From a virus: a stretch of 20,464 nucleotides of DNA. Positions within the stretch are counted from its first letter, which is position 1. The number at the start of each line of letters is the position of its first letter. The position numbers and the translations under genes are program-made. The stretch lies in the UHGV virus genome UHGV-0121713; one strand, written 5' to 3'. Of the stretch, positions 50-19,480 are shown piece by piece. The notes beneath the pieces are model-generated. The model was not told where the DNA came from and made no database searches. It saw only the letters and a program-made list of their open reading frames with translations.

Positions 50-586
50 ATGCGTCGCGCTAACGATCCGCAACGGCGAGAAAAAATTATCCAGGCCACG
101 CTGGAGGCGGTGAAACTTTACGGAATACATGCTGTTACGCACCGCAAAATTGCTACCCTTGCCGGGGTACCGTTGGGATCGATGACCTACTATTTTTCAG
201 GAATTGATGAGTTGTTACTGGAGGCGTTCAGCAGTTTTACTGAGATCATGTCCCGGCAATATCAGGCATTTTTTAGCGATGTTAGTGATGCTCCGGGCGC
301 ATGCCAGGCTATCACCGATATGATCTACAGCTCACAGGTTGCAACGCCGGATAACATGGAGCTGATGTACCAGCTCTACGCGCTGGCTAGCCGAAAACCG
401 CTATTAAAAACGGTAATGCAAAACTGGATGCAGCGCAGTCAGCAAACGCTCGAACAATGGTTTGAACCCGGAACCGCCCGCGCGCTTGATGCGTTTATTG
501 AGGGGATGACGCTGCATTTTGTCACCGACCGTAAGCCGCTATCGCGCGAGGAGATTTTGAGGATGGTTGAGAGGGTTGCAGGGTAG
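50..586 (+). CDS. rcdA: TetR-family transcriptional regulator RcdA (YbjK), 178 aa
   Basis: Translation [35 protein letters not shown]... has an N-terminal TetR-type HTH and matches my recollection of E. coli YbjK/RcdA. ATG at 50 follows an AGGAA Shine-Dalgarno; the ORF-track start at 20 is a TTG upstream extension. Confidence 0.85.
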
Positions 587-690: not shown

Positions 691-1743
691 TTACGGGGTA
701 ATGCCAACCGCTGCCGCCACTTTGTCGCCACTTGGCAGCGTTGCCAGAGGATTGAAACGGAGCGCCGTTTCCAGATGATCCGGTGCCAGATGTGCGTAAC
801 GCATAGTCATTTTTATATCGTGGTGTCCGAGAATTTTTTGTAAGGCCAGAATGTTTCCACCCGACATCATGAAGTGCGCCGCAAACGTATGGCGCAGAAC
901 GTGTGTGAGTTGACCGCGAGGGAGCACGATAGACGTTTTTTCCATCACGGATAAAAATTGAAAATAGCAGTCTGTGAAGAAATTGAACCCATCAAGCGCC
1001 ATGATCTCTTCGTAAAGCTCTTTACTGATAGGGATGCTTCTGTTTTTCTTCCCCTTCGTTCTTACAAAGGTAATTCGGTATTTGGTCACCTGTGAACGAG
1101 TAAGATTTACGGCTTCTCGCCAGCGTGCGCCTGTGCTTAAGCATATCTTAACTACCAGTGCCAGAATTGGGTCCTGACGTTTGCAATCAGCCAGTAATTC
1201 AACAATCTGCTCATGGGTAAGCCATGCCATCTCTTTTTCTGCGATGGTGAATTTTCGCATGTTCTCCAGTGGGTTCGGATACGACCATTCGCCCAGGCGG
1301 GATAGTTCGCTAAAAACACTACTTAGATAGCTTTGCTCCAGGTTAATGGTGACCGGGCTTGCTCCTTTCTTCCATTTCTCGCTGAAGTAGATCTCACCTG
1401 TCAGGCGTTTATCTCGATAGTGGGCAAACATTTTAGAGGTTAGATCAGTTGCAAGGGGATTGCCCAGAGCGTCAACCATCAGCAGCAATTTGTCATAGAC
1501 ATGCTGCCCAGCAGTCAGTGATTTACCATGTAGTTTGAACCATAGCTCAACCACGTCTTTCAGTGTTCGACGATCCACTGATTCACCTAGCCAGGGCTTT
1601 GCTTCGGTTTCTTCCATCGTGTGACGCTCAAAAGCCAGTGCTTCGCCTTTGGTGGCGAATTGTTTACGCACACGACGCCCACTACGTCCGGCGGGGTAAC
1701 ATTCGCAAAGCCATTTTCCTGTGGTGAGTTTTCGTACAGCCAT
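691..1743 (-). CDS. int: Tyrosine site-specific integrase, P2/186 family, about 350 aa
   Basis: Translation from MAVRKLTTGKWLCECYPAGRSGRRVRKQFATKGEALAFERHT resembles the P2 Int N-terminus. The C-terminal region carries R...HxxR...Y catalytic-type residues (LRHTFAAHF...MRYAHL). The internal ATG at 1743 is preceded by GGAGGG, so the ORF-track start at 1821 is probably an upstream extension. Confidence 0.9.
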   Translation of the reverse strand: MAVRKLTTGKWLCECYPAGRSGRRVRKQFATKGEALAFERHTMEETEAKPWLGESVDRRTLKDVVELWFKLHGKSLTAGQHVYDKLLLMVDALGNPLATDLTSKMFAHYRDKRLTGEIYFSEKWKKGASPVTINLEQSYLSSVFSELSRLGEWSYPNPLENMRKFTIAEKEMAWLTHEQIVELLADCKRQDPILALVVKICLSTGARWREAVNLTRSQVTKYRITFVRTKGKKNRSIPISKELYEEIMALDGFNFFTDCYFQFLSVMEKTSIVLPRGQLTHVLRHTFAAHFMMSGGNILALQKILGHHDIKMTMRYAHLAPDHLETALRFNPLATLPSGDKVAAAVGITP

Positions 1744-1931
1744 AAAAAATGCCCTCCAATAGAGAGCATTTTTACTGTATGTATAACCAGTGTCAATGTA
1801 TGAAATCCTGCGACCATACATCTCACTGAAGCCATAATGAAGTAGGCTATTCTTTTTGCTATGTGATCATGTAACTTTTGCGGTTAACCTGTGGCTCATT
1901 TTTATTTTAGGCGCAGATATAAAAGCAAAAG

Positions 1932-2123
1932 TTATCGTGAGTTTTTAGTACAGATTTTTTTGGATTTACTAATAGTTCCATCATTGCAAACGAATTTGCC
2001 ATCAGAGGTACAGTGAGAAACACCTCCCTTTTTCCCTGAGCAGGGATAATTTCTAGCATAGGTAGCTAGTGGGTTTAATAACAAAGAACATGACAAAACC
2101 ACAAAAAATACCTTACCAAGCAT
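1932..2123 (-). CDS. Small cysteine-rich protein with a predicted signal peptide (63 aa), immediately downstream of cI; candidate lysogenic-conversion (moron) gene
   Basis: [23 protein letters not shown] then a Cys/Lys/Gly-rich mature part with 4 Cys. GGGAG Shine-Dalgarno about 8 nt upstream of the ATG; the start lies 15 bp after the cI stop on the same strand. Confidence 0.5.
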
Positions 2124-2138
2124 AATTTACTCCCGGTA

Positions 2139-2708
2139 CTATTTAACATACTTGACTGTTAAACTTATAATTTTACCAATTATTTCAATGTCTTCTATCT
2201 TACATTCAAAGGCTCTGTTTCCACCCTCGACGAAGATTCTTCCACCGGGTAAACGAGTAATGTCACGGATCGTTATTTCGCCATCAATACTTATTACCCA
2301 TTTACCATCACGTATATCATCAAATTCCTTATCACAAATAAATTCAGAATTATTATCTGTGATTACAAAAAGATTCTTGAATGCCGACGGTAGAAATTCT
2401 CTATCGAAAATATAAAAACCGTCTTCACACAAGGCCCCATCAGATAATACATATTTAGCAACTTCCATAGTATTTGTATTACCTGAAGTTTGCTTTGAAC
2501 CATGCCCGGTTGTGAGCCAATTAAGCGAGGTGCCTGTTTCAAGGGCGCACTGGATTACCCATTCTGCTGGGAATGAGTCACGCATGTAGCGTGTGGCGAG
2601 TGTACTTTTAGAGATTCCTAAATGATCGCACAACGCCTGTCGAGTCTTGAATCCATAAGCTTCTACCATGCGCTCTATGGCGCCTCGTCCGCCTTTCTCC
2701 AAATTCAT
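2139..2708 (-). CDS. cI: Phage 186 CI-like immunity repressor (about 189 aa)
   Basis: N-terminal HTH-like segment (GFKTRQALCDHLGISKSTLATRYMRD), size and position between int and a divergent apl/cII operon as in coliphage 186. ATG at 2708 has a GGAG Shine-Dalgarno; the ORF-track start at 2714 is GTG. Confidence 0.75.
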   Translation of the reverse strand: MNLEKGGRGAIERMVEAYGFKTRQALCDHLGISKSTLATRYMRDSFPAEWVIQCALETGTSLNWLTTGHGSKQTSGNTNTMEVAKYVLSDGALCEDGFYIFDREFLPSAFKNLFVITDNNSEFICDKEFDDIRDGKWVISIDGEITIRDITRLPGGRIFVEGGNRAFECKIEDIEIIGKIISLTVKYVK

Positions 2709-3087: not shown

Positions 3088-3597
3088 ATGTTTGATTACC
3101 AAGTTTCCAAACATCCACATTTTGATGAAGCCTGTCGTGCATTTGCACTGCGCCACAATCTGGTGCAACTGGCAGAACGTGCAGGCATGAATGTGCAGAT
3201 TCTGCGGAACAAGCTGAACCCAGCTCAGCCTCATTTATTAACCGCACCAGAAATCTGGCTGCTTACCGATCTGACTGAAGATTCAACGCTGGTAGATGGT
3301 TTTCTGGCACAGATTCATTGTCTGCCATGTGTACCGATTAATGAGGTGGCAAAAGAGAAACTGCCACATTACGTCATGAGTGCAACCGCAGAGATCGGGC
3401 GTGTTGCTGCAGGTGCGGTGTCTGGCGATGTAAAAACCTGTGCCGGTCGTCGTGATGCTATCAGCAGCATTAACTCTGTAACACGACTGATGGCGCTGGC
3501 GGCTGTTTCATTGCAGGCCCGTTTACAGGCTAATCCTGCGATGGCGAGTGCAGTTGATACCGTGACTGGCCTCGGTGCTTCATTTGGTTTGCTGTGA
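3088..3597 (+). CDS. cII: Phage CII-like transcriptional activator (186 CII family), about 169 aa
   Basis: Translation [45 protein letters not shown]... matches my recollection of 186 CII in sequence and size. ATG 3088 has an AGAGG Shine-Dalgarno at 8-nt spacing; the ORF-track start at 3082 is TTG. Confidence 0.75.
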
Positions 3598-3604
3598 GGT
3601 GCTT

Positions 3605-3805
3605 ATGCTGACGAAAGAACCATCATTTGCATCGCTGCTGGTTAAACAAAGCCCGGCAATGCATTACGGTCACGGCTGGATCATGGGGGAGGATGGTAAA
3701 CGCTGGCATCCGTGCCGTTCACAAGATGAATTGCTGGCAGAACTATCTACGAAAAAACGGGGGAACAAATGGCTATTGAAGGCACTGCGGCGACTGTTCC
3801 ATTAA
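3605..3805 (+). CDS. Small early-operon phage protein (66 aa), occupying the position of fil in 186
   Basis: ORF in the early operon directly after cII; start ambiguous (GTG 3575 or ATG 3605). Function not recognisable from sequence. Confidence 0.4.
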   Translation: MLTKEPSFASLLVKQSPAMHYGHGWIMGEDGKRWHPCRSQDELLAELSTKKRGNKWLLKALRRLFH

Positions 3806-4110
3806 GCCCCGGTGAACGCCTGAATGGACTTAATCACATTGCGGAGTTAAGGGCGAAAGTTTTTGGCCTGAATATTGAGTCAGAGCTTGAGCGGTTTATT
3901 AAAGATATGCGTGATTCACGGGATATTAATAGCGAACAAAATAAACGGGCACTGGCTGCCATATTCTTTATGGCAAAAATTCCAGCTGAACGTCATAGCA
4001 TCAGCATTAATGAGCTGACCACTGACGAAAAGCGGGAGTTGATTAAAGCAATGAATCATTTTCGTGCAGTGGTGAGCTTATTTCCCAGACGGCTAACCAT
4101 GCCGAATTAA
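3769..4110 (+). CDS. Hypothetical early-operon phage protein (113 aa)
   Basis: ATG with GGGGGA Shine-Dalgarno 5 nt upstream; overlaps the previous ORF end, suggesting translational coupling. Confidence 0.5.
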   Translation: MAIEGTAATVPLSPGERLNGLNHIAELRAKVFGLNIESELERFIKDMRDSRDINSEQNKRALAAIFFMAKIPAERHSISINELTTDEKRELIKAMNHFRAVVSLFPRRLTMPN

Positions 4111-8489: not shown

Positions 8490-8933
8490 GAAATGTTGCC
8501 CCCAGGAGGATTCATTCTAATGGGGGCTAGTTTGGGCAACGAGTGAAACGAGGCGTAAGGTGGGTAATCATTTTGATAAGTGATCGCCCACTTTGTGCCA
8601 AAAGCGGACATCGCAGATATGACAATATGTTAGTCAACCGCGATTAGATCAGTCAGTTGGAGATGGGGGGAAGTTACAAAAACTTGTCGTCCGCCATCTC
8701 CGACTACGGGTATTCTTAACTGTACATGCTCTTTCAATCGATGATTTTTGAGTAAGTGACTAACCTATTGTTTTGATAGTAATTAAACGTATAAACGTGC
8801 GGAGTTAATTTGAAAGTTATGTGTCTATGTTTGACAAGCAAAATTTTAAAGATTGGTTTTATCCACAGGTAATTTATGCTATTAATAGCCTCAAGCCCTG
8901 TAATTATTTTTATTTAAATGGATAAATTTGAAA

Positions 8934-11054
8934 ATGAGTACATATCATAATGATCAGCCAATACTAGGTGGTCAAAATGACCCCGATTTATTAAACAGGC
9001 TCGATTTTGCAAATCACTTGGCAAATATTCTACTATTAAATCACAATGATGATTGCCTTACTGTATCTATAGAGGCAGAGTGGGGATATGGTAAAACGTC
9101 AGTGATAAATCTTATAAAAGGTGCTTTGAATGAAAAGGAGTTCTTACCAATAATAATAGAATATAATCCATGGCTGGCCGGTCAACCTGAATCCTTGATT
9201 CAGGATTTTTTATTACAGTTCTCTTCACAACTAAATATTAAAGACAATTCAAAAGCTGCTTTGGAAGCTTCAAAAGAATTAATTGCATACTCCAATCTCT
9301 TCAGTGTAGCAAAACTTATTCCAGGGACAGAACCTTGGGCATCTATCATAGAAAAAGTCCTCTCTAATTTTGGGAGTGCTACTAAAAAGATTGCTGAATT
9401 AAAAAAACTGGATCTTTTAGGTAGAAAAAAACAAGTAGAGAAGGCAATAAAAAAAATAAAAAATCCTATTGTGGTAATAATTGATGATATTGATCGATTG
9501 ACTCCTGCAGAAACTTTTCAAGTTTTACGATTGGTTAAAGCAGTTGCAGATTTCTCAGGAACTTCTTTTTTACTTGCATTTGATCCTAATTATTTGATTT
9601 CTGTGCTTGATAAAAATAATATCGTCAATTCTTCGGAGTATCTTAATAAAATTGTTCAACTTCGAGTCCCACTTCCTGTAATCTCAGAAAGGGGTATGAA
9701 TGAACTTGCAAATGCAGAACTGGAAAAGATAGCTAATAAATCTTTAACTGACAGATTCGAAAGTGATCAAGAAAGACTAAGCTGGATTTATCATAATTAT
9801 TTTAAAAAACTAATTAAGAATCCGAGAGAGTTAAAAAGATTTTTTAACCATTTGAGATTCGTTTTAGAGCAAATTGAAGGGCAGGTATGTTTTTCTGATC
9901 TCTTTGCTTTATCTCTGGTCGCCACTAAATCGAGTTTGGTATACGAGCATATTAAAAGCACACCAGAGGCATATATAGGGAAGAGATTCACTAATGATGG
10001 CCTTTTGATGGATAAACCTCAAGATATTGTGGATAGATTTAGTGATGAGCGAAATAAGAAACTGAGTAATTTTTCTGATCAAGAGCGTTCAGTGATGCAG
10101 GAACTCTTAGGAGATATTTTCCCACTTCTACAGTCAAGCGGGTATTCTCATTATGGGGTTTCTGATCCCGATACAGCAGGAAGGGTTTCTGCACCACAAA
10201 GGCTTCATATTGCGTTTCATTATAAAACTCCAGCAGGGTATATTTCTGATCATGATATTATCAGTTTCATTAATGGAGATGTCAAAAGAAACGAATTTCT
10301 AAGAGATGTGCTCTCGCAAAATGCAGAAGAAAGATTTTTTGAAATGATGAATAATTATTCGAGTTATTGTAAGGATAATAGTTTTGAAATATTAACGTGT
10401 ATTTATGATACTTTTCTGTTTTCTCAAGAATTGAAATCCTCATTGGAAAGAAACTATGGTTTTTTGACAAAAGATCTTTATAGAAGGATGAATTGGCTCA
10501 CTAATAAGGTAATATCTGAAAGTGATGATAAATATGGGTTAATAAAGGGGGTTGTAGGTAGGCATGAGAATGCGCCACTTGGTGCAGACGTATTATGCCA
10601 AGCTCGTAAACAGATTCAAAATGGATGGAATGACAAAATATGGGTTAGTATTGAAGAATTGGCTGAACTTGAAGGTATCTTTCAACAGGTGGCTATTAAA
10701 GTTTTAAGTGATAAAATATATTTTGATTATCATCTTGAATCTCATATATTTTTCGAATTAAAGAGAGTTTCATCTCAATTTACATCAGAGTTTATTGCTT
10801 CTGTATTATCAAGTGATGGCCTGATTAGGATGTGTGAGATTATTGGTGAAACAGGTAGTGATTCAACAAATGGCCCTTATTTTAAGTTTGATGAAATTTA
10901 CTTCGGGGAAATACTTGATGTGAATGAACTTCGAAATAAAGCGAAAAATTTAGATTTTTCAATTTATCCCACACGCATTCAAGCTGTACTTAAGAGTATT
11001 CTGGATGGACAAAAATATTATTTGAGAGATGCAACTGTTGGTGAAGATTGGTAA
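8934..11054 (+). CDS. KAP-family P-loop NTPase (PifA-like), about 706 aa; candidate abortive-infection/defence protein
   Basis: Walker A EAEWGYGKTS (about 9072..9101) and KAP-type Walker B IVVIIDDIDRL (about 9465..9500). Gene is visibly AT-rich with several A7-A8 tracts, unlike the flanking phage backbone. ORF-track start 8928 is TTG; the first ATG is 8934. Confidence 0.7.
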   Translation: MSTYHNDQPILGGQNDPDLLNRLDFANHLANILLLNHNDDCLTVSIEAEWGYGKTSVINLIKGALNEKEFLPIIIEYNPWLAGQPESLIQDFLLQFSSQLNIKDNSKAALEASKELIAYSNLFSVAKLIPGTEPWASIIEKVLSNFGSATKKIAELKKLDLLGRKKQVEKAIKKIKNPIVVIIDDIDRLTPAETFQVLRLVKAVADFSGTSFLLAFDPNYLISVLDKNNIVNSSEYLNKIVQLRVPLPVISERGMNELANAELEKIANKSLTDRFESDQERLSWIYHNYFKKLIKNPRELKRFFNHLRFVLEQIEGQVCFSDLFALSLVATKSSLVYEHIKSTPEAYIGKRFTNDGLLMDKPQDIVDRFSDERNKKLSNFSDQERSVMQELLGDIFPLLQSSGYSHYGVSDPDTAGRVSAPQRLHIAFHYKTPAGYISDHDIISFINGDVKRNEFLRDVLSQNAEERFFEMMNNYSSYCKDNSFEILTCIYDTFLFSQELKSSLERNYGFLTKDLYRRMNWLTNKVISESDDKYGLIKGVVGRHENAPLGADVLCQARKQIQNGWNDKIWVSIEELAELEGIFQQVAIKVLSDKIYFDYHLESHIFFELKRVSSQFTSEFIASVLSSDGLIRMCEIIGETGSDSTNGPYFKFDEIYFGEILDVNELRNKAKNLDFSIYPTRIQAVLKSILDGQKYYLRDATVGEDW

Positions 11055-11170
11055 TACTTTTATAGGCATGCTTAGAGATGATGGAGTATCTTTTTCTCCC
11101 TTTTGAGGAAGTGATTTCCAACTGGGCATGGATGCCACATCAAATGGACAGTTGTTGTCACCTGTCAGTT

Positions 11171-11240
11171 AGCTGCTATTTGTTTATAGCAGCTGAAAGC
11201 CCACTACATAGTTACACCAGAAGGAGTAACAATGTAGTGG
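11171..11240. repeat. Two adjacent strong inverted repeats (hairpins) in the intergenic region after the KAP gene
   Basis: IR1: agctgctat (11171..11179) / atagcagct (11186..11194), perfect 9-bp stem. IR2: ccactacatagttac (11201..11215) / gtaacaatgtagtgg (11226..11240), 14 of 15 bp paired with AAGGAG in the loop. The 10-mer CCACTACATA recurs at 11478..11487. Confidence 0.5.
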
Positions 11241-11496
11241 ATAGCTAAATTTGACCACCTTAACAGATATGTTAATTTCCCCCCTCGCTCACAGCGGACT
11301 TTCATCTTTGTAAACCCTTATAATTCGCTTTTCAGCGGTCATTCAGATACGGATTTACGCTTTCCTTGGCAGTGCATGACTATGACGCATGAGATCGCAT
11401 GATCGTTTGAGGATCGTTTTTGCTGAGGCCAGCCAGAACTGGCGTGCTTTTGCTTATGTCATGCAGGTGCATGAAAACCACTACATAAAGTGGGCA

Positions 11497-11515
11497 GGCG
11501 TGGCGGGGATACGAG
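11497..11515. other. Candidate cos (cohesive-end) remnant of the P2/186 family
   Basis: GGCGTGGCGGGGA (11497..11509) matches the first 13 nt of the 19-nt P2/186 cohesive end as I recall it (GGCG[A/T]GGCGGGGAAAGCA[C/T]); the next 6 nt diverge. It sits in a local GC-rich patch inside otherwise AT-rich cargo. Not verified by alignment. Confidence 0.3.
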
Positions 11516-11645
11516 CGCGCGCTAACTCTTGGCTTTGTTTCATAATCAAAAATGTGATCATTGAGATTATTCTTAATTTTATGTTTGTCTATGAAATATC
11601 ATTTCGCTTAACATTGTTTGAGTTAGGACTACATGAGAATAAAGA

Positions 11646-12221
11646 ATGCTTTTACCCGTAAGTGTTACATCGTGTGGCTTGTATCACCCCTACTGGCATT
11701 TGGGAGAGCGCAACCCTCATAGCGATGAACTATCAAGGCAGATGATGGATTTTAAGGATGAAAATAATCGTAATCATCAAAGGGCTATTAACCGTTTTTC
11801 TCGATTAGCTATAGATAAGGTTGGGCGGTTAGTAATCAGAGGTGGCGGTGGGCGTTTTGTTGAGTCTCCTTTTTCGATAGCAGTCGTCCCATCTCACACT
11901 GAAGGCAGAATTTCACCGGCTTTGATTGAGGTCGCCGAGCGAATCGTAAATGTTCACCGTCGGGGCATTGTTGATTGCTGTTTGGAAAGAACACGCACTG
12001 TTCCTAGCGCACATCGTGAAGGAGGAGATCGCTCAATTACTGGTCACATGTCTAGTATCAGAGTTAGGGGTGGTAACCTCATGGGGCGAAATGTGTTACT
12101 ACTAGATGATGTTAAAACAACAGGCGGTAGTTTGTCTGCGTGTTTTTATTTACTGGAGTCTGCAGGAGCTGGAGTTATAATGCCATTAGCTCTGCTAGAA
12201 ACTGCAAACTATGAGGAGTAG
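11646..12221 (+). CDS. Type I phosphoribosyltransferase (PRTase) domain protein, 191 aa; candidate defence effector (ShosT-like / ComF-like)
   Basis: PRPP-binding signature VLLLDDVKTTGGSL (hydrophobic stretch-DD-x-x-TTG). In-frame TAA two codons upstream fixes the 5' limit. Overlaps the next gene by 11 nt. Confidence 0.7.
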   Translation: MLLPVSVTSCGLYHPYWHLGERNPHSDELSRQMMDFKDENNRNHQRAINRFSRLAIDKVGRLVIRGGGGRFVESPFSIAVVPSHTEGRISPALIEVAERIVNVHRRGIVDCCLERTRTVPSAHREGGDRSITGHMSSIRVRGGNLMGRNVLLLDDVKTTGGSLSACFYLLESAGAGVIMPLALLETANYEE

Positions 12222-13185
12222 CAAAGTGCACTCAGAAGAATTAAAAAATACACTTGGATTAGCTATTCAAATCGGGAAGCTAGCATCTGATCAAAGTGTA
12301 TTGAAATTCTTTGAGCTTATTGATTTTGATGTTATTCGTGATATACGCGACTTAACTGAGATGGTTAATAGCCACGGGTTTCTAAAAGATAAAATATCTG
12401 AGACTGATTTTCTAATAGCGAATGCTGAATTGGAGAACCACCATGTTAATGGTGTGGAGCTAATACCATATGGGTCTGAATTCTATCCTCTTAGTTTAGC
12501 GTTTACTCCTAATCCACCATCAATTCTCTACATAAAAGGGGATAAAAGTATACTAAAAGAATTGCCGGGTGTCGCAATTGTAGGATCCCGTGATACTTCC
12601 CCTGCAGGGGAAGAAATAACGAGGCGAATCACTAATCAGATAGTGTCTGCTGGGTATATTGTTGTAAGTGGGTTAGCAATAGGCACTGATGCGAATGCTC
12701 ATAAGGCAACGTTACAAGCAAAAGGAAAAACCATTGCTGTCTTGGCGCATGGTCTTGAGGAGGCTAAGCCGAAGCAAAACAGTCGACTTGCTCAAGAGAT
12801 TCTGGATAAAGGTGGTGCATGGATTTCTGAGTATCCTATGGGGCGACCGGCCCAGAAACAATCATTTGTACAAAGAAATCGGATACAAGTTGGATTATCT
12901 GCAGGTTCAATTTTAATCGAGGCTGCGTTAAATAGCGGAACGATAACTCAAGCTGAGTTTGCAAATAAGGCTAAAAGACCAGTGTTTGCGGTTGTACCTC
13001 ACCTACCTAATAATCCGCTTAATCTTAATTGTGAGGGAACAGTTGATTTAGTTAAGAGCAACATGGCTAGAGCGTTAAAAACAAAACGGGATTATGATGA
13101 TGTGATTATGATCATAAATGAGTCTCGGGAGTATTTGTTAGAGCTAAAATGGCCAGGGAAACAGAGTACATTAGACTTGATTTAA
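12211..13185 (+). CDS. DprA/Smf-like (SLOG-superfamily Rossmann) protein, about 320 aa; candidate defence partner (ShosA-like)
   Basis: DprA core motifs VAIVGSRDTSPAGEE and IVVSGLAIGTDANAHKA, then TIAVLAHGLEE and RNRIQVGLS. Start is ATG 12211 or GTG 12226 (the latter has a GGAG Shine-Dalgarno at 7-nt spacing). Confidence 0.75.
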   Translation: MRSSKVHSEELKNTLGLAIQIGKLASDQSVLKFFELIDFDVIRDIRDLTEMVNSHGFLKDKISETDFLIANAELENHHVNGVELIPYGSEFYPLSLAFTPNPPSILYIKGDKSILKELPGVAIVGSRDTSPAGEEITRRITNQIVSAGYIVVSGLAIGTDANAHKATLQAKGKTIAVLAHGLEEAKPKQNSRLAQEILDKGGAWISEYPMGRPAQKQSFVQRNRIQVGLSAGSILIEAALNSGTITQAEFANKAKRPVFAVVPHLPNNPLNLNCEGTVDLVKSNMARALKTKRDYDDVIMIINESREYLLELKWPGKQSTLDLI

Positions 13186-13209: not shown

Positions 13210-13866
13210 CTAAATTTGATATCTCTCGAATTTTATAATTTCTTCACCGCTCCAATGATTAAATTCTTTCATTCTTTTTTGTAATGGTAATAATTCATTT
13301 TTCACAAATACCTTACTAGCTTTTTCTACATCCCCAAATCCCCCAACATTATTAGGCATTATCCCCATCATCTGTGGCGGAACGCGATGTGCTGCCATCA
13401 TGTCATCCCGGCTCACGTTCTTGATATTTAGAAACTCATCCTTCGCCGCAACTTCTGACAAAGGGATGATCTGAAGGCCGTCCTTTTTGCCGTTAGGCGA
13501 GTACATAAACAGGTTGCGGAAGTTACCCGGACCTTTGGCACTTTTCATTGCATTGCGGAGGTTGTTCACGTCCTCCTGGTTCTGCGCAGCATCGGTCATG
13601 TACATGATGAAGCCTGCATGACTACCGTTAATGTAATACTTGCGGCGGAACAGCGTGGCGGACTCATTGAGCAGGGCGGACGGAATGGCAGAAAGATAGC
13701 TGGGCAGGCCGTAGATCTCCTGGTTAATGTCCGGTTCCATCAGATGAAAAATGCTGCCTTTCGTGAACTGATACGGCTGGGTTGTCATACCGTATTGCAC
13801 AAACCAGTAGGTATCCAGGTCTAACCCGCGTCGGGTGTATTTTGCCAGAGCAGGCTCAAGGGCGAC
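13210..13866 (-). pseudogene. Q: 3' fragment of the portal gene Q (P2 gpQ family), 5'-truncated by deletion
   Basis: Encodes about 218 aa of portal-like C-terminal sequence (...YINGSHAGFIMYMTD...LQIIPLSEVAAKDEF...). The open frame runs upstream into unrelated sequence; the N-terminal third and the adjacent terminase P are absent. Upper boundary is approximate. Confidence 0.65.
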
Positions 13867-14054
13867 AACGACAACACCGGATTGAGGAACTGAAACGTGA
13901 GAACGAGGATTTACGCCGCTGGGCTGATACACCTTTGCCTGCTGACATTATCCGGCTGCGGGAACGCCCCACACTCACCGGAGGTGCAGATTACCGTCAG
14001 TGGTTGTCCGCGAGTGACGCCGTGTCGGCTGGGACAGGCAGCGCCGCGCACTAA
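13866..14054 (+). pseudogene. lysB: 3' fragment of lysB (Rz-like inner-membrane spanin), 5'-truncated
   Basis: Coiled-coil, charged C-terminal peptide ...HRIEELKRENEDLRRWADTPLPADIIRLRERP directly upstream of R, as in P2 (lysA-lysB/lysC-R-S). No holin or endolysin upstream. Boundary approximate. Confidence 0.45.
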
Positions 14055-14187: not shown

Positions 14188-14581
14188 AGCGGTGCCTTAT
14201 GTCCGCAATAACCCGGACAAACTGCATCTGTTTGTGGATAACGGTTCGCTGGTTGCCACGGGGGCCAGCTCCATGTCATGGGAGTACCGCTATACCCTGA
14301 ACGTGGTGATAGAGGATTTCAGCGGCGACCAGAATCTGCTGATGGCCCCGGTTTTACTGTGGCTTCGGGATAACCAGCCCGATGCCATCAATAACCCGGC
14401 GTTACGGGAAAAGCTATTCACCTTTGAGGTGGATATTTTGCGCAACGATGTCTGTGATATCAGCCTTAACCTGCAATTGACGGAACGTGTGCTGGTCAGT
14501 ACTGACGGCAGTGTGTCGAGCGTTGAAGCTGTAGCAGAACCCGATGAACCTGAAGAAATGTGGACGGTGAAACGTGGCTGA
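14150..14581 (+). CDS. R: Tail completion protein (P2 gpR family), about 143 aa
   Basis: MNKPQSLRHALNKAVPYVRNNPDKLHLFVDNGS... resembles my recollection of P2 gpR (MLKPDSLRRAL...IFVDNGS). GTG 14150 with AGGAG Shine-Dalgarno at 7 nt; ORF-track start 14129 is TTG. Confidence 0.7.
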   Translation: MNKPQSLRHALNKAVPYVRNNPDKLHLFVDNGSLVATGASSMSWEYRYTLNVVIEDFSGDQNLLMAPVLLWLRDNQPDAINNPALREKLFTFEVDILRNDVCDISLNLQLTERVLVSTDGSVSSVEAVAEPDEPEEMWTVKRG

Positions 14582-15020
14582 ACTGCAGAAGGTGGACGAC
14601 TGGCTGAGTGCCTTGCTGGCGAATCTGGAACCAGCCACGAGAAGCCGCATGATGCGCCAGCTGGCGCAGGAACTGCGCCGGACACAGCAGCAGAATATCA
14701 GGATGCAGCGCAATCCAGATGGCAGCAGTTATGAACCGCGCAGGGTAACAGCACGCAGCAAGAAAGGCCGCATCAAACGTCAGATGTTTGCAAAGTTGCG
14801 CACCACAAAATACCTGAAAACTGCCGCCAGCGCCGACTCTGCCAGCGTACAGTTTGAAGGCAAGGTGCAGCGTATTGCCCGTGTTCACCATTACGGCCTG
14901 CGTGATCGCGTCAGTCGCAAAGGACCGGAGGTCCGTTACGCAGAGCGCCGCCTGCTGGGTGTAAATGATGATGTTGAGGCAATGACCCGCGACATGATTC
15001 TGCAATGGCTGGCGGGGTGA
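14574..15020 (+). CDS. S: Tail completion / virion morphogenesis protein (P2 gpS family), 148 aa
   Basis: Follows R with overlapping GTG start and stop (GTGGCTGA), matching the P2 R-S order and size. Confidence 0.65.
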   Translation: MAELQKVDDWLSALLANLEPATRSRMMRQLAQELRRTQQQNIRMQRNPDGSSYEPRRVTARSKKGRIKRQMFAKLRTTKYLKTAASADSASVQFEGKVQRIARVHHYGLRDRVSRKGPEVRYAERRLLGVNDDVEAMTRDMILQWLAG

Positions 15021-15088: not shown

Positions 15089-15295
15089 ATGAACGCACAA
15101 TTAACCGAAATCATGCGCCTTATCACCAACCTGATCCGCACTGGTGTAGTCACCGAAGTGGACCGGGAAAACTGGCTTTGCCGGGTGAAAACGAGCGACC
15201 TTGAAACCAACTGGATTAACTGGCTGACGCTGCGCGCGGGTAAACGCGCTGCCGCAGGACAAGCGCCTGTCTGCCATGACTATGTTGTTTGGTAA
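15089..15295 (+). pseudogene. V: 5' fragment of baseplate spike gene V (68 codons), truncated
   Basis: MNAQLTEIMRLITNLIRTGVVTEVDRENWLCRVKTSDLETNWINWLTLRAGK resembles the P2 gpV N-terminus; the frame ends after 68 codons where tape-measure-like sequence begins in another frame. Confidence 0.6.
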
Positions 15296-16082
15296 AGAGT
15301 TTGGCGATGACGCGGCGAAACTGGCAAACAACCTGCCGGAACTGCAGCGTCAGTTAAAACTGACAGCGGGCAATGATGCGCTTGGCTCCATGCAGAAAGA
15401 ATCCGACATTAACAAGGATTCACTTTCTGCGCAGTGGTTGCTGGTCAAAACCGGAGCGCAGAACACCTTCAGCAGCCTGGGCGAAACGCTGCGCCAGCCG
15501 CTGATGGATATTCTGTACACGGTGAAAAGCATCACGGGAGCGTTGCGCCGCTGGGTGGAAGCTAACCCGGAACTGACAGGCACACTGATGAAAGTATCGG
15601 CTGTTGTGGCTGCGGTTACCGTCGGCCTCGGCACCTTAGCGGTGGCGCTGGCTGCAGTGCTGGGGCCGCTGGCAGTGATCCGTCTGGGATTCTCTGTGTT
15701 GGGTATCAAAACGTTATCTTCCGTTACGGCAGCAGTAACTCGAACCAGCAGCGCGTTGTCCTGGCTGGCTGGCGCACCACTGGCACTGCTGCGACGCGGG
15801 CTTGCTTCATCGGGCAACGCCGCAGGTTTACTTACTGCGCCGTTGTCGTCTTTGCGCCGCACGGCATCACTGACGGGAAATGTCCTGAAAACTGTAGCAG
15901 GTGCGCCGGTTGCACTTTTGCGGTCTGGATTATCCGGTTTACGTGCTGTTGCTGTGATGTTTATGAATCCTCTGGCGGTACTGCGCGGTGGACTGGCCGC
16001 CGCAGGCACGGTGCTGCGAGTACTGGCATCTGGTCCACTGAATCATTGTCCGATATGTTCGGTGATCTCAGTGCGCAACTGA
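15276..16082 (+). pseudogene. T: Internal fragment of tail tape-measure gene T
   Basis: Ala/Leu/Gly-rich repetitive hydrophobic segment typical of tape-measure proteins; only about 268 codons, abutting the V fragment. W, J, I, H, G, FI, FII, E and most of T/U are absent. Confidence 0.55.
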
Positions 16083-16149: not shown

Positions 16150-17250
16150 GTGAATTTCAGCTCTGAACTGCTTAACAAAGGCAACAAAACTCCCGCATTC
16201 AGCATCAGTATTGAGGGCAGGGATATCACCACTGTGCTGGATAACCGCCTGATGAGTCTGACGCTGACGGACAATCGGGGCTTTGAAGCGGACCAGCTTG
16301 ATCTGGAGCTGGACGACGCCGATGGAAAAATAGCGCTGCCGCGCCGTGGTGCGGTCGTTACGCTGGCGCTGGGCTGGAAGGGGCAGCCGCTTTTCCCGAA
16401 AGGGGCATTCACGGTGGACGAGATTGAACACACTGGCGCACCGGACCGCCTGACTATCCGGGCGCGAAGTGCTGATTTTCGGGAAACGCTGAATACCCGC
16501 CGTGAAAAGTCGTGGCACAAGACCACTGTCGGGGAAGTGGTGAAGGAAATAGCTGTGCGGCACAAACTGAAGATGGCACTGGGTAAAGACCTGTCAGATA
16601 AACCCGTGGAACATATAGACCAGACCAATGAGAGTGACGGCAGTTTTCTGATGCGGCTGGCGCGCCAGTACGGTGCTATTGCGTCGGTGAAAAATGGCAA
16701 TCTGTTATTCATCCGGCAGGGACAGGGTAAAAGCGCCAGCGGTAAACCACTACCGGTGATCACTATCACACGTAAGGACGGCGACAGTCACCGCTTTACC
16801 CTGGCAGATCGCGGAGCCTATACGGGCGTAATTGCCAGTTGGTTGCATACCCGCGAACCCGCGAATAAAGAAAGCACCACGGTGAAGCGTAAGCGCAGGA
16901 CTAAGAAGCAGAAGAAAGAGCCGGAAGCGAAGCAGGGCGATTACCTGGTGGGTACGGATGAAAACGTGCTGGTACTTAATCGCACCTATGCCAACCGGAG
17001 CAACGCCGAACGGGCGGCAAAAATGCAGTGGGAACGCCTGCAACGCGGCGTTGCGTCATTCTCGCTACAACTGGCGGAAGGGCGGGCAGATCTCTACACG
17101 GAAATGCCAGTGAAAGTCAGTGGCTTTAAACAGCTGATAGATGATGCGGAATGGACCATTACGACTCTGACACATACCGTCAGCCCGGATAACGGTTTTA
17201 CGACCAGTCTGGAGCTTGAAGTGAGGATTGATGATTTCGAAATGGAATGA
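16150..17250 (+). CDS. D: Tail protein D (P2 gpD / late control D family), 366 aa
   Basis: Position immediately before ogr at the prophage right end, and size, match P2 gpD. GTG start with GGGAGG Shine-Dalgarno at 9 nt, overlapping the stop of a short upstream U-like remnant frame. Confidence 0.75.
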   Translation: MNFSSELLNKGNKTPAFSISIEGRDITTVLDNRLMSLTLTDNRGFEADQLDLELDDADGKIALPRRGAVVTLALGWKGQPLFPKGAFTVDEIEHTGAPDRLTIRARSADFRETLNTRREKSWHKTTVGEVVKEIAVRHKLKMALGKDLSDKPVEHIDQTNESDGSFLMRLARQYGAIASVKNGNLLFIRQGQGKSASGKPLPVITITRKDGDSHRFTLADRGAYTGVIASWLHTREPANKESTTVKRKRRTKKQKKEPEAKQGDYLVGTDENVLVLNRTYANRSNAERAAKMQWERLQRGVASFSLQLAEGRADLYTEMPVKVSGFKQLIDDAEWTITTLTHTVSPDNGFTTSLELEVRIDDFEME

Positions 17251-17636: not shown

Positions 17637-17650
17637 AACAAAAAACCCAT
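17637..17650. repeat. Candidate attR core: AACAAAAAACCCAT, identical to 603..616
   Basis: Exact 14-bp direct repeat of the left boundary, located between ogr and the ybjL 3' end. Confidence 0.45.
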
Positions 17651-17682
17651 CAACCTTGAACCGAAGTAGCGGGGTTGATGGG
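17637..17682 (-). terminator. Intrinsic terminator of ybjL (minus strand)
   Basis: Stem cccatcaacc (17646..17655) / ggttgatggg (17673..17682), followed on the minus strand by a U-run (the + strand A-run at 17641..17645). Confidence 0.5.
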
Positions 17683-17794
17683 CTCCACAAAATGGGGGCA
17701 TCAAAGAAAAGCAGTGGCACTAATTAAGACTGATGCCCTGCGGAAAAGTTCTGCGGTTGTGCAAAAAAATTTCATTTTCAGGGCAACTTCAGTT

Positions 17795-19480
17795 TTATCC
17801 TAATCCTGGCCATACCATGACGATGATTGTCCCTGCCAGCGTCAGCAGGACGTTGGCGATTGCATAGGTGCCCGCATAGCCCAGCGCCGGGATGTTACTG
17901 CGAGCTGTATCACTGATGATCTCCATTGCCGGCGCGCAGGTACGTGCGCCCATCATTGCGCCGAACAACAGCGCGCGGTTCATTCGCAATACATAAGCAC
18001 CGAACAAGAAACAGATAACCACGGGCACCAGACTGACAATCAATCCGGCAATCAACATCTGACCGCCAATCGCGCCCAGGCCGTTATTAATACCGCTACC
18101 GGCGCTCAGACCAACGCCTGCCATAAACACCATCAAGCCGAACTCTTTCACCATGCTTAATGCACCCTGCGGAATGTAACCGAAGGTCGGGTGGTTAGCA
18201 CGCATAAAGCCCAGCATAATTCCGGCGAATAACAACCCGGCAGCGTTCCCCATGCCGAAACTGAATGTGCTGAACTGGAAGGTGATCATCCCGATCATCA
18301 GCCCAATAACAAAGAAGGCGCAGAATGCCAGCAGGTCAGTGACCTGGCTGTGAATCGAGATAAAGCCGATGCGATCGGCGATGGTTTTTACGCGGCGGGC
18401 ATCGCCGCTGACTTGTAAAACGTCACCTTTGTTAAGCACGACGTTGTCATCTATCGGCATCTCAATCTGGCTACGAATGACGCGGTTAAGGAAGCAACCG
18501 TGATCGGTCAACTTCAGTTGTGCGAGACGTTTACCTACAGCGTTATGGTTTTTAACGACCACTTCTTCAGTGACGATACGCATGTCGAGAAGGTCACGAT
18601 CGAAAACTTCTTTACCGTTACGGAAGCTGGGATCGAGTCGGGCATGGGCGTCGGGATAGCCTACCAACGCTATTTCATCGCCCATTTGTAGCACGGCATC
18701 ACCGTCTGGATTTGCCAGAATCCCGTTACGTCGAATACGTTCAATGTAGCAGCCGGTTTGTCGATAAATACCCAGTTCACGCAGATTTTTGCCGTCGGTC
18801 CAGGCCACCAGTTCCGGGCCGACGCGATAGGCGCGGATCACCGGTAAATAAACCTTACGGTTGGCATCAGTGTCCAGGCCACGTTCGCGGGCGATTTGCT
18901 GGGCGCTGGTCTGTAAGTCCTGATGCTGCAATTTCGGCAAGTAACGCGCACCAACAATCAAACTCACCAGACCGATTAAATAGGTTAAGGCATACCCGAG
19001 GCTCAGATTATCCAGTGCCAGTGAGAGCTGCCTGCTTTCCATGCCGGAATGACGCAGTGTATCGCCAGCACCGACCAGAACCGGTGTCGACGTCATAGAG
19101 CCTGCTAACATACCGGCCGTCAGGCCAATATCCCAGCCAAACAGCTTACCTAACCCTAAGGCGATCACCAGCGCACTGCCAACCATCACCAGTGCTAACA
19201 TTAGGTAATTTTTCCCATCGCGAAAAAAAATGGAAAAAAAGTTCGGTCCGGCTTCGACCCCGACGCAGAAAATAAACAGCATAAAGCCAAGATTAAGCGC
19301 ATCGGTGTTAATGCTGAAATGTTGTTGGCCTAATAACAGCGATACGACTAAAACGCCAATGGAATTACCCAGTTGGATCGAACCAAGTCGTAACTTTCCG
19401 AGACATAGCCCAAGCGCGAGGACCACAAATAATAACAGAATGTAATTCCCATTTAACAATTCGGCGACGTTTATATTCAC
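17795..19480 (-). CDS. ybjL: Putative transporter YbjL (AAE-type membrane protein with central TrkA-C-like regulatory domains), 561 aa
   Basis: Long hydrophobic N- and C-terminal halves flanking a soluble central region; translation begins [21 protein letters not shown], as I recall for E. coli YbjL. GTG start. Confidence 0.85.

Follow-up and report, generated by a model that had tools for sequence, protein, structure and literature searches.

A YdcA-family gene between cI and int of a 186-like Escherichia coli prophage encodes a predicted periplasmic mini-protein with a putative role at the cell envelope of the lysogen

The lysogeny region of a 186-like prophage of E. coli, integrated beside rcdA, carries directly behind its cI repressor gene a small gene of the YdcA family. 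This gene belongs to the variable cargo found between cI and int in these phages, and it probably aids the lysogen at the cell envelope, a putative role proposed because the same slot holds anti-phage genes in related phages. The DNA analysed, referred to here as the window, is the 20,464-nucleotide virus genome UHGV-0121713. The peptide is not a new family, and the cI-int hotspot has also been described previously; the hypothesis considered here is that the gene serves in lysogenic conversion.

According to the ORF list and its translation, the ydcA-family ORF occupies minus-strand positions 1932..2123, has a product of 63 aa and ends with the stop codon at 1932-1934. The preceding gene on this strand is that of the 186-type cI repressor (2139..2708 in the PGAP coordinates, minus strand; Pfam Phage_CI_repr, E 3e-33, and Phage_CI_C, E 3e-27), for which the ORF list also holds a longer form with a GTG start at 2714. 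The TAG stop codon of cI (2139-2141) is followed by a spacer of 15 nt (TACCGGGAGTAAATT; 2124..2138, minus strand) and then by the ATG of the ORF. Reading of this spacer reveals a Shine-Dalgarno sequence, GGGAG, at 2130-2134, 6 nt ahead of the start, which is kept in the BL21 and O25b alleles (GGGAGG). The original prediction of a 63-aa ORF located 15 bp behind cI, on the same strand and with a strong Shine-Dalgarno, can be read in the sequence in all its elements.

A homology search, proposed with that prediction, led to the YdcA family. The protein matches the NCBIfam model NF007463 with 114.6 bits (cut-off 93, E 1.3e-33), residues 5-63 being aligned to positions 1-58 of the 58 of the model, and the 63-aa peptide matches PHROG 6000 with an E of 3e-34. 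In addition, PF27300 is the precomputed assignment of a cluster identical to the window protein, and the PGAP name for the identical sequence is "YdcA family protein". The novelty implied at the outset was overstated, as the annotations of hundreds of E. coli genomes, BL21(DE3) included, already list the ORF under the name "YdcA family protein" or as a "hypothetical protein", and its families are present in NCBIfam, Pfam and PHROG.

This ORF is a genuine gene and a member of the YdcA family. Between the window and the BL21(DE3) allele there are 11 synonymous and two non-synonymous differences (dN/dS 0.04; binomial P 4e-6 under equal rates and 6e-4 with the synonymous opportunity doubled), and the gene has been kept intact and under purifying selection inside a defective prophage remnant. 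The family HMM scores and the dN/dS value place the ORF above chance. A spurious or non-functional ORF in an AT-rich spacer might be suspected from its short length and the GC content of the region (~35%), but this reading has a negligible probability and is effectively refuted by the conservation data: the low dN/dS, the curated HMM score above its cut-off, a family of 469 representatives at 50% identity, 493 relatives in IMG/VR (the best 80 of the 493 being near-identical E. coli copies only), and a position conserved across genera. Conservation at the protein level among related prophages, on which the original prediction had been staked, was found.

The description of the product as a small, secreted, Lys/Gly-rich peptide with four cysteines is upheld by the family HMMs, hydropathy and composition. 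The N-terminus contains Lys4, a hydrophobic core in residues 5-16 (Kyte-Doolittle 9-mer means of 2.2-2.7) and the residues T-Y-A at positions -3 to -1. Ala23, at position -1, is invariant in 32 homologues (alignment A1), while the remainder of the signal peptide varies freely. Hydropathy and alignment predict a Sec signal peptide of residues 1-23, encoded at 2055..2123 (minus strand), with a putative cleavage site after Ala23. The residues LSC within it might recall a lipoprotein signal; the PROSITE PS00013 lipobox rule demands a Cys at positions 15-35 and six uncharged positions before the box. This possibility was discarded, given that the Cys of VLSC is residue 12, that Lys4 falls within the excluded stretch, and that this Cys is unconserved whereas Ala23 is invariant.

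The mature domain (residues 24-63; 1935..2054, minus strand) is the basic four-Cys domain shared by YdcA and the Dis2 lobes. It comprises 40 aa (4.3 kDa), among them 4 Cys, 7 Lys, 2 Arg and 5 Gly, and has a pI of 9.7 and a net charge of +7. The cysteines are arranged as C-x9-C-x7-C-x11-C (C28, C38, C46 and C58), a pattern nearly invariant among homologues, and would be expected to form two disulfides in the periplasm. The family motif, PCSGxKGG[VI]xxC...F[VI]CxDG[ST]xSxSKxxC, is almost invariant while the signal peptides diverge. The AF2 model of the peptide has a pLDDT of 84. Weak Pfam matches to GULLO2-like_3rd, EGF_BRNP and LDL-receptor class A domains (E 0.005-0.2) were judged to be noise from the cysteine pattern, and a resemblance of the motif to DUF3761/YHYH-type domains was dropped after zero matches at E<=1.

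The family includes YdcA of E. coli K-12 (57 aa) and is represented by the PRK10040 models NF007462, NF007463 and NF007464, by PF27300 and by PHROG 6000. Like its members, the window peptide combines a signal peptide with the motif domain and has four Cys and a basic charge; it also presents both features that define them, a whole-protein HMM score above the curated cut-off (NF007463) and a basic four-Cys domain right after an N-terminal signal peptide. It belongs to the prophage subfamily NF007463 and not to the K-12 model, with NF007462 scoring 68.5 against a cut-off of 118; moreover, the window gene lies inside a prophage lysogeny operon, while K-12 ydcA is located beside cybB/rydC. Of 225 family domains, 215 contain four Cys and 90% begin no later than residue 45 (median, residue 24); their net charge averages +4.2. 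No function has been established for the family (PMC7642389; bioRxiv 10.1101/2024.02.12.579971). Deletion of ydcA renders E. coli W sensitive to 300 mM 3-hydroxypropionate, ydcA has been reported to be acid-induced, and beyond this sensitivity there is no known phenotype for K-12 ydcA or the window gene (PMC7642389).

Of 5426 complete E. coli genomes, 595 (~11%), BL21(DE3) among them, have the gene adjoining cI. The order cI-ydcA-int is found in Escherichia, Buttiauxella, Yersinia and Pasteurellaceae, the peduoviruses of the last two having a ydcA-like ORF in the corresponding place; in the Haemophilus phages HP2 and S2 this ORF is unannotated and overlaps the cI stop. A locus survey in which ORF calling was seeded with the ydcA ORF identified the CI repressor as the commonest neighbour family (69 species-level loci). 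Most family members lie outside prophages, beside cybB in K-12-type loci, beside prc or htpX-type M48 peptidase genes, or on plasmids. Megablast of cI plus the ORF against sequenced phages gave zero matches; tblastn gave matches concentrated in phages of Haemophilus, Moraxella and Acinetobacter, which are naturally transformable hosts, and nothing further when rerun at E 10. In HP2 and likewise in Acinetobacter plasmids, the ydcA-like ORF is followed by a partner gene; these partners share no homology with one another, and Pfam found nothing informative in them except for tRNA_anti-like in HP2 orf1(S), the gene adjacent to the ydcA-like ORF, which encodes a secreted OB-fold protein.

Downstream of the ORF lies the tyrosine integrase gene int (691..1743, minus strand; Pfam Int_N and Phage_integrase; "phage integrase" in PGAP). 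The statement that P2 and 186 have no gene between C/cI and int proved correct, since 186 has the int start directly against the cI stop and in P2 a gap of 115 bp separates C from int. In the prophage studied here, this space holds an exchangeable cargo module whose approximate limits (1804..2138, minus strand) were set from the ends of megablast matches and from alignment A6. In genomes with other cargo, the int-side matches end at query positions 352-358, which correspond to 1801-1807 of the window, and in alignment A6 homology picks up again at ~1800. Sister prophages at rcdA, with the same int and early genes, carry other genes replacing the ORF. In the PADLOC-DB classification, these include PD-Lambda-1/SNIPE (E 4e-120) and the KAP NTPase PDC-S20 (E 2e-171); one sister prophage contains a ydcA-like gene and KAP together, and two further occupants lack any annotation in defence. 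SNIPE cuts the DNA of phages while it is being injected (PMC13190303), and the cI-int junction of P2-related phages was already known as an accessory and defence hotspot (PMC9122126, PMC13586616).

It is therefore well supported that the ORF is an accessory gene of the moron type in the variable cI-int slot. As in other morons, it is present in some collinear relatives and missing from others, its slot is exchangeable, and the phage core can do without it; its own promoter and terminator were not detected by the scans, so the classical signals of an autonomous moron are lacking. The association of the gene with defence through its slot is weak, because such slots also carry non-defence morons. 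SNIPE/PD-lambda-1 and KAP-NTPase PDC-S20 share with the ORF the identical cI-int slot in rcdA-integrated sisters; however, both are sizeable enzymes of the cytoplasm or inner membrane, with a role in defence that is validated or candidate, while the YdcA-like peptide has neither an enzymatic domain nor a PADLOC model (0 families of PADLOC-DB 2.0 at E<=0.01 for the window peptide or the STIN_95 allele).

With regard to expression, it is a sound inference that the ORF is expressed from the repressor transcript, because scans of the cI-ORF spacer detected neither terminator-like nor minus-strand promoter-like sites, because the cI stop and the ORF start overlap in HP2 as well as in H. parainfluenzae and other Pasteurellaceae prophages, and because the annotations of the homologous lysogenic operons (those of 186, K139 and HP2) have these operons driven by pL in the lysogen. 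Directly before the ATG of int there is a 13-bp hairpin followed by a U-run (1745..1773, minus strand; dG -17.5 kcal/mol, z -5.8), which spans the int Shine-Dalgarno (GGAGG) and looks like a putative terminator or translational attenuator. It is kept, with compensatory changes, in prophages with other cargo (alignment A6). A second stem-loop, with a 10-bp outer stem in the MFE and centroid folds, starts at the ORF stop codon and is part of the cargo module (1872..1934, minus strand). The fold of 1735-1935 has a z of -4.5 for the whole ORF-int spacer. A search of the region with Rfam returned zero known RNAs.

The best and only meaningful PDB match of the peptide, by both sequence profile and predicted fold, is Dis2 (Lpg0823) from Legionella. 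The AF2 model matches 7muc_AN with a TM of 0.66 and an rmsd of 1.6 A over 35 columns; 35 of the 37 mature residues compared superpose on a Dis2 lobe with 43% identity, and the profile match calculated without the signal peptide has an E of 0.0019. The domain matches each of the Dis2 lobes, both proteins hold the motif CSxxGG[VI]xxC...VCN[DN]G, and both would be exported, disulfide-pinned proteins of the periplasm next to the outer membrane, this being a prediction in the case of the window peptide. Nevertheless, Dis2 has two lobes and five disulfides and is a 13-copy subunit of the T4SS cap, whereas the window protein consists of a single lobe with no Dot/Icm-type T4SS nearby, T4SS genes being absent from the window and the annotated locus. 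For these reasons, the protein has been filed as sharing a domain with Dis2, and not as Dis2 or as a T4BSS outer-membrane-cap subunit. Dis2 itself is a stoichiometric structural subunit (PMC8486379, PMC12716638) on the outer-membrane-facing surface of the T4SS cap, where it binds DotC, DotD and DotK; it is dispensable, has no known function and is treated as Legionellales-specific (PMC12716638).

A further functional lead, besides the match to Dis2, comes from larger proteins. Among the 35 long family members, seven are fusions to secreted nucleases of the Pfam families Endonuclease_NS (three), SNase (two), PLDc_2 (one) and Endonuclea_NS_2 (one), with the YdcA domain N-terminal to the nuclease. 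An SNase is fused or encoded within 124 bp at 6 of 79 species-level loci.

Several exclusion proteins encoded in lysogeny modules resemble the window peptide in position and destination. The lactococcal Sie2009 is a small, envelope-targeted, prophage-expressed protein that blocks DNA injection, and its gene and that of Ltp are presumably placed between integrase and repressor genes. Ltp, from S. thermophilus TP-J34, is another small, envelope-targeted protein of the lysogeny module that blocks DNA injection (PMC3952083). The window peptide is similar to both in being small, predicted to be envelope-targeted, encoded within the lysogeny module and presumably expressed in the prophage state. Contrary to these proteins, which are lipoproteins or membrane-anchored, unrelated in sequence and found in Gram-positive siphophages, it is an apparently soluble, predicted periplasmic peptide without a lipobox. 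A closer parallel in position is Glo from the Vibrio cholerae phage K139 (Peduoviridae), a protein annotated as periplasmic and as taking part in phage exclusion (PMC3952083). The order in K139 is cI-orf2-glo-int, and both Glo and the window peptide are signal-peptide proteins encoded between cI and int in a P2-related phage, in a pL lysogenic operon that for the window gene is a prediction. Even so, Glo has 137 aa, is not Cys-knotted and bears no sequence relationship to the window peptide, so that the analogy is functional only. Homology between the two was rejected (hhalign probability 0.06), and tblastn of the window peptide gave no match in Vibrio phages.

Taking these data together, we tentatively favour, as one possibility among several, a lysogen-expressed periplasmic mini-protein that binds polyanions or an envelope component and acts in superinfection exclusion. 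A transcript from pL (and pE) would cover both cI and the ORF, whose translation would start from a strong Shine-Dalgarno of its own, and the hairpin and U-run before int would probably limit read-through or int translation, which would make cI and the ORF a lysogen-expressed unit. The peptide would be exported by Sec and cut after Ala23, yielding a periplasmic mature form of 40 aa with two disulfides and a charge of +7. This domain may serve as a small module that binds a polyanion or an envelope partner outside the cytoplasm; DNA and constituents of the outer membrane's inner face are candidates. In the lysogen, the lone domain could hinder an envelope-level step in the entry of incoming DNA or phage, in analogy with Glo, the periplasmic protein that K139 encodes in the corresponding position. 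The DNA that a phage injects usually passes through a shielding conduit, and simple periplasmic DNA binding may thus not suffice to block entry. A phage-resistance phenotype has been reported for no member of the YdcA family, and the location of most members outside prophages argues for a general envelope role and not a phage-specific one. It also speaks against the exclusion model that K-12 ydcA has been connected only with tolerance of acid and 3-hydroxypropionate (PMC7642389) and that Dis2 is dispensable (PMC12716638).

A general envelope role is the basis of another possible, if rather unlikely, explanation, in which the peptide would be a host-fitness factor of lysogenic conversion that alters envelope physiology to the benefit of the lysogen independently of other phages, as lambda Bor and Lom do. 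Acid or organic-acid tolerance, envelope stress, and resistance to serum or host factors would be within its scope. The 3-hydroxypropionate sensitivity of the E. coli W mutant and the acid induction of the chromosomal paralogue ydcA (PMC7642389) agree with this explanation, as do the many chromosomal, non-phage members beside prc, htpX-type M48 peptidase genes and cybB and the purifying selection acting on an intact gene in a defective remnant. Nevertheless, the ydcA phenotype comes from a single study, the characterised occupants of the recurrent slot are anti-phage, and a stress-tolerance role leaves the nuclease fusions unexplained. These fusions, in four Pfam nuclease families, and the tight adjacency to SNase genes suggest instead that the free domain recruits, tethers or regulates an extracytoplasmic nuclease such as EndA, which would degrade foreign DNA in the periplasm, or that it conversely protects DNA. 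SNIPE, an alternative occupant of the slot, is a nuclease acting at DNA entry (PMC13190303), and the concentration of phage matches in the transformable hosts Haemophilus, Moraxella and Acinetobacter fits as well, although this host pattern may reflect database sampling. We consider a nuclease partner improbable, since the ORF has no nuclease gene as a companion in the window and an N-terminal domain in the fusions is what would be expected of a binding or anchoring module, not of a regulator.

The relationship to Dis2 opens a different route, in which the peptide would be an adaptor or accessory subunit of an outer-membrane-associated machine that docks on envelope lipoproteins or OmpA-like proteins rather than on polyanions and modulates a host or phage apparatus, be it a secretin, a pilus, a T4SS, the spanin/lysis machinery or a receptor. 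The only solved relative is indeed a 13-copy subunit touching DotC, DotD and DotK, some members are named "conjugal transfer protein" in UniRef, and one adjoins traD/mob genes on a 4-kb Acinetobacter plasmid. We regard both the adaptor and this set of targets as quite unlikely, because neither the window nor most loci have T4SS or secretin genes around the gene, Dis2 has two lobes where this protein has one, and the nuclease fusions suggest a generic binding module. This proposal overlaps the exclusion reading, since masking of a receptor or a pilus would itself yield exclusion. The small size, the +7 charge and the two presumed disulfides also resemble those of defensin-like peptides, but a role in competition, as a secreted cationic antimicrobial or bacteriocin-like peptide, is highly improbable: in E. 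coli a Sec signal peptide alone reaches only the periplasm, adjacent genes for immunity, export and processing are absent, and the domain is also found at the N-terminus of larger enzymes and in the role of a structural subunit.

A broader proposal, which we think unlikely to hold in full, would unite the lone peptide, the nuclease fusions and Dis2 through one domain. According to it, the domain would be a widespread, previously unrecognised extracytoplasmic mini-domain for DNA binding or envelope docking, acting as a lone, minimal 40-aa periplasmic factor of superinfection exclusion or DNA-entry blocking, produced from the repressor transcript, in peduoviruses of Enterobacterales and Pasteurellaceae, as a tether in nucleases, and as the "species-specific" Dis2 subunit of the Legionella T4SS.

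The gene stands beside a prophage repressor in about 11% of complete E. coli genomes, and the arrangement recurs in Yersinia and in Haemophilus phages. If it proves only a minor envelope-fitness gene, it would count as an ordinary moron of a hotspot already known. Binding of DNA or of an envelope component is the biochemical activity that the nuclease fusions suggest, and through the link to Dis2 Legionella research would gain relatives outside Legionella of a supposedly lineage-specific T4SS subunit. Should the peptide be an exclusion factor, it would be among the smallest known and would give the YdcA family a function.

The ydcA-like ORF lies at 1932..2123 (-) in a 186-like prophage, between int (691..1743, -) and cI (2139..2708, -), with the host gene rcdA (50..586) at the start of the window and the rightward early genes beyond cI (apl/cox-like, cII, fil, DUF5347, DUF2732, a TraR/DksA-like gene, dam, and a replication endonuclease). 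As read from the sequence, the cI stop is followed by a 15-nt spacer, TACCGGGAGTAAATT, and then by the ATG of the ORF, with the Shine-Dalgarno GGGAG located 6 nt upstream of this codon. The N-terminus of the 63-aa protein holds Lys4, a hydrophobic core, and T-Y-A at -3..-1, and the predicted mature product comprises 40 aa (4.3 kDa, pI 9.7, net charge +7, four Cys). Since the spacer, the GGGAG, the N-terminal features, and the predicted mature peptide are all present there, the original prediction of a four-Cys ORF with a signal peptide and a Shine-Dalgarno, 15 bp after cI, is borne out in every element, including its coordinates.

On sequence grounds, this ORF is a real gene. Its product scores 114.6 bits against NF007463 (PRK10040.1-2; NCBIfam search, curated cut-off 93) and matches PHROG 6000 (E 3e-34), and no Rfam families were found in the ORF region. 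When the window allele is compared with the BL21(DE3)/Combat2C1 allele, 11 of the 13 nucleotide differences are synonymous (the probability of at least 11 out of 13 being 4e-6 at equal rates and 6e-4 with the synonymous opportunity doubled), and the other two are the conservative changes A20T, in the signal peptide, and R24K. The resulting dN/dS is 0.04 overall and 0.02 for the mature part. The prediction had been made to depend on protein-level conservation among related prophages, and this is evident both in that ratio and in the nearly invariant mature segment of 32 homologues, the signal peptides of which are almost unalignable except for an invariant Ala at -1. A spurious ORF is effectively excluded.

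Regarding expression, scans of the stretch that separates cI from the ORF revealed no terminator-like or minus-strand promoter-like sites. On the other side of the ORF, the 188-nt spacer before int folds far better than shuffled controls (z -4.5), with a stem-loop that begins at the ORF stop codon and a 13-bp hairpin directly before the int ATG (1745-1773, -; AAAAAUGCUCUCU-AUU-GGAGGGCAUUUUU; dG -17.5, z -5.8). The latter covers the int Shine-Dalgarno, is followed by a U-run, and belongs to an int-proximal conserved block, being kept through compensatory changes (GCTCTC/GAGGGC versus AGCCCTC/GAGGGCT) in E. coli prophages with other cargo (L009-L013). The consensus terminator scan gave no call at this hairpin; in the lysogen, the hairpin and its U-run may act on int as a terminator or by attenuating translation. 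In the simplest reading, the pL (and pE) transcripts would carry cI and the cargo gene, int expression would be attenuated in the lysogen, and the peptide would be produced whenever the repressor is produced.

The slot between cI and int has been described before as a hotspot in two papers (PMC9122126, PMC13586616). The original statement that P2 and 186 have no gene in this position is correct, as the int start abuts the cI stop in 186, and C and int are separated in P2 by a 115-bp gap with no gene. A cI-ORF-int(5') query matched 1109 E. coli genomes, with the whole segment in 589, and several hundred other genomes match on the int side only, the homology ending at about window position 1803. 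Among prophages with the same int side, the slot is occupied by a 558-aa DUF4041 protein matching PADLOC PD-Lambda-1 (L010, E 4e-120), by KAP NTPases matching PADLOC PDC-S20 (L012 and L013, E 1e-77 and 2e-171, in L013 together with a ydcA-like ORF), or by proteins of 323 and 314 aa without a PADLOC defence model (L009 and L011). PD-lambda-1, now named SNIPE, is a nuclease that is bound to the membrane and cuts phage DNA during injection (PMC13190303). The slot holds a 1677-bp gene in the sequenced phage vB_EcoM-813R9 and four small ORFs in HP1. In K139, the PL operon has the order cI-orf2-glo-int, and Glo, whose annotation reads 'periplasmic protein; involved in phage exclusion', has been described as a soluble periplasmic Sie protein (PMC3952083).

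A tblastn search of sequenced phages returned no E. coli phages; the matches were Haemophilus HP2 and S2, 20 Moraxella catarrhalis phages, three Acinetobacter phages, and one Pseudomonas phage. The HP2 match, a 60-aa ORF whose ATG overlaps the cI stop, falls where the phage record has no annotation, between cI and orf1(S). The product of the next gene, orf1(S) (3136-3900, +, in the HP2 locus L002), is 254 aa long and combines a signal peptide with a tRNA_anti-like OB fold (PF12869, E 3e-13), so that two exported proteins are encoded in the HP2 slot. Among the 80 loci returned by a species-level scan of GTDB genomes, the order cI-ydcA-int was found in Escherichia (L014, L015), Buttiauxella (L016), Yersinia alsatica, Y. 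aldovae, and Y. nurmii (L017, L018, L035), as well as in Pasteurellaceae, namely Haemophilus parainfluenzae and one other genome of that family (L067, L071, L073); in these last loci, the start of the ORF overlaps the stop of cI. Nearest-neighbour families in 69 non-redundant loci are headed by the phage CI repressor (5 by Pfam, 7 by PHROG 4), with integrase next (4). This recurrence at the cI stop across Enterobacterales and Pasteurellaceae, including the unannotated HP2/S2 ORF, appears to go beyond the descriptions found.

Other settings of ydcA-like genes are chromosomal, near cybB, prc, and M48 peptidases, or plasmid-borne, in Acinetobacter and Rhizobium. In the Acinetobacter plasmids pGFJ6 (L181, 640-1609) and pAL_065-4 (L182, 642-1574), the gene is followed by a ~243-aa gene of unknown function, which looks like a recurring two-gene module; one of these plasmids is only 4 kb, and in pGFJ6 the pair adjoins traD and mobA. 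In siphophages such as Moraxella Mcat17 (L003, 2935-3114) and Acinetobacter Ab11510-phi (L004, 3001-3099), the gene lies outside the lysogeny module, in the structural region, amid head or tail genes and upstream of a long tail (tape-measure-like) gene, and it is unannotated in several records.

By its gene content, the window prophage is a defective remnant. It retains a truncated portal gene (13210..13932, -; 240 aa, TIGR01540 positions 86-317), an S-like morphogenesis gene (14574..15020), the C-terminal piece of a tape-measure gene (15276..16082), and a gpD-like gene (16150..17250), beyond which lie the host RybB sRNA (17637..17715, -; 97.7 bits) and ybjL (17795..19480, -). An intact cI-ydcA-int module has thus been kept in a decayed prophage. 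In full-length relatives, such as that of strain BE311, the P2-type structural genes are all present. Three genes fill the known P2 hotspot that separates the replication gene from the portal gene: one for a 708-aa KAP-family NTPase with a weak QatA-like N-terminus (8928..11054), an ORF of 191 aa whose match to phosphoribosyltransferases is weak (11646..12221), and one that is DprA-like (12211..13185). As a set (8928-13185), they have the look of candidate cargo for defence or DNA processing.

Of 5426 complete E. coli genomes, 595 contain the 241-bp segment 1900-2140, BL21(DE3) and E. coli HS being among them. In the matches listed, it always covers 'phage repressor protein CI' and a small CDS, whose label is 'hypothetical protein' or, where PGAP was run more recently, 'YdcA family protein'. 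The 90%-identity cluster of the window protein has 355 members and is assigned to Pfam PF27300, an entry that postdates the Pfam copy searched here and is taken from the precomputed cluster annotation. Relatives in IMG/VR number 493, and a profile search of 1.84 billion representatives yielded 469 family representatives (261 at E<=1e-10). The K-12 YdcA (57 aa) has been described as an uncharacterised protein with a predicted periplasmic location (bioRxiv 10.1101/2024.02.12.579971), and ydcA deletion made E. coli W sensitive to 3-hydroxypropionate (PMC7642389). The gene, the family, and the hotspot were all previously in databases or the literature; the window gene is therefore classed under the known accessory cargo of peduovirus lysogeny operons, in which it is uncharacterised.

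AlphaFold2 models, with pLDDT 77 over the full protein and 84 over the mature domain, show the latter as a short helical turn and a beta-hairpin. Its best PDB match is chain AN of PDB 7MUC/7MUD, which is Dis2 (Lpg0823) of the Legionella Dot/Icm T4SS. Dis2 contacts DotC, DotD, and DotK, is dispensable for assembly and intracellular growth, and has been treated as a Legionellales-specific T4SS subunit without structural neighbours, not generally conserved beyond that order (PMC12716638). Family members with two repeats, among them P0080 and P0081 (PCSGKMGGI...FLCNNG), span the sequence gap to Dis2, and with moderate confidence the YdcA domain can be equated with the Dis2 lobe, a homology that appears to surpass the descriptions found. 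Dis2 looks like a tandem of two YdcA-family domains, the family being spread over Proteobacteria, prophages, and plasmids. In contrast to this two-lobed T4SS subunit, the window protein has one lobe and no T4SS nearby, and it was therefore rejected as a Dis2 orthologue.

In 35 family representatives longer than ~120 aa, the signal peptide is followed directly by the YdcA domain and then by a low-complexity linker. The domain is N-terminal to secreted nucleases (e.g., P0123, P0173), namely Endonuclease_NS (3/35), SNase (2/35), PLD-like (Nuc-type; 1/35), and Endonuclea_NS_2 (1/35); a PBCV basic adaptor domain (2/35) and VasL (1/35) were also found. An SNase domain is fused to, overlaps, or lies <=124 bp from the ydcA-like ORF in 6 of 79 species-level loci (L058, L068, L070, L087, L089, L090). 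Four Cys are present in 215 of 225 domain copies, whose mean net charge is +4.2, with only 7 neutral or negative. The nuclease fusions, the SNase adjacency, this Cys/charge pattern, and the HP2 OB-fold neighbour suggest, from architecture, an extracytoplasmic binding or tethering module, with a polyanion (DNA, for example) or an envelope surface as its possible ligand. The repeated fusions likewise appear to extend past existing descriptions.

The best model, put forward tentatively, is a lysogen-expressed periplasmic mini-protein that would counter phage or DNA at the envelope as it comes in. As a putative minimal analogue of K139 Glo, the peptide would bind either DNA or some envelope component related to entry. 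The chief rival, a phage-independent role in envelope fitness, has in its favour the K-12 ydcA phenotype and the many non-phage settings of the family, and is itself possible, if doubtful. It is unlikely that the protein acts, as Dis2 does, as an adaptor for an outer-membrane machine, and still less likely that it is a partner of periplasmic nucleases; that it is a secreted antimicrobial peptide is highly improbable. While the positional recurrence, the Dis2 homology, and the nuclease fusions do not establish the function of the protein, they make it directly testable.
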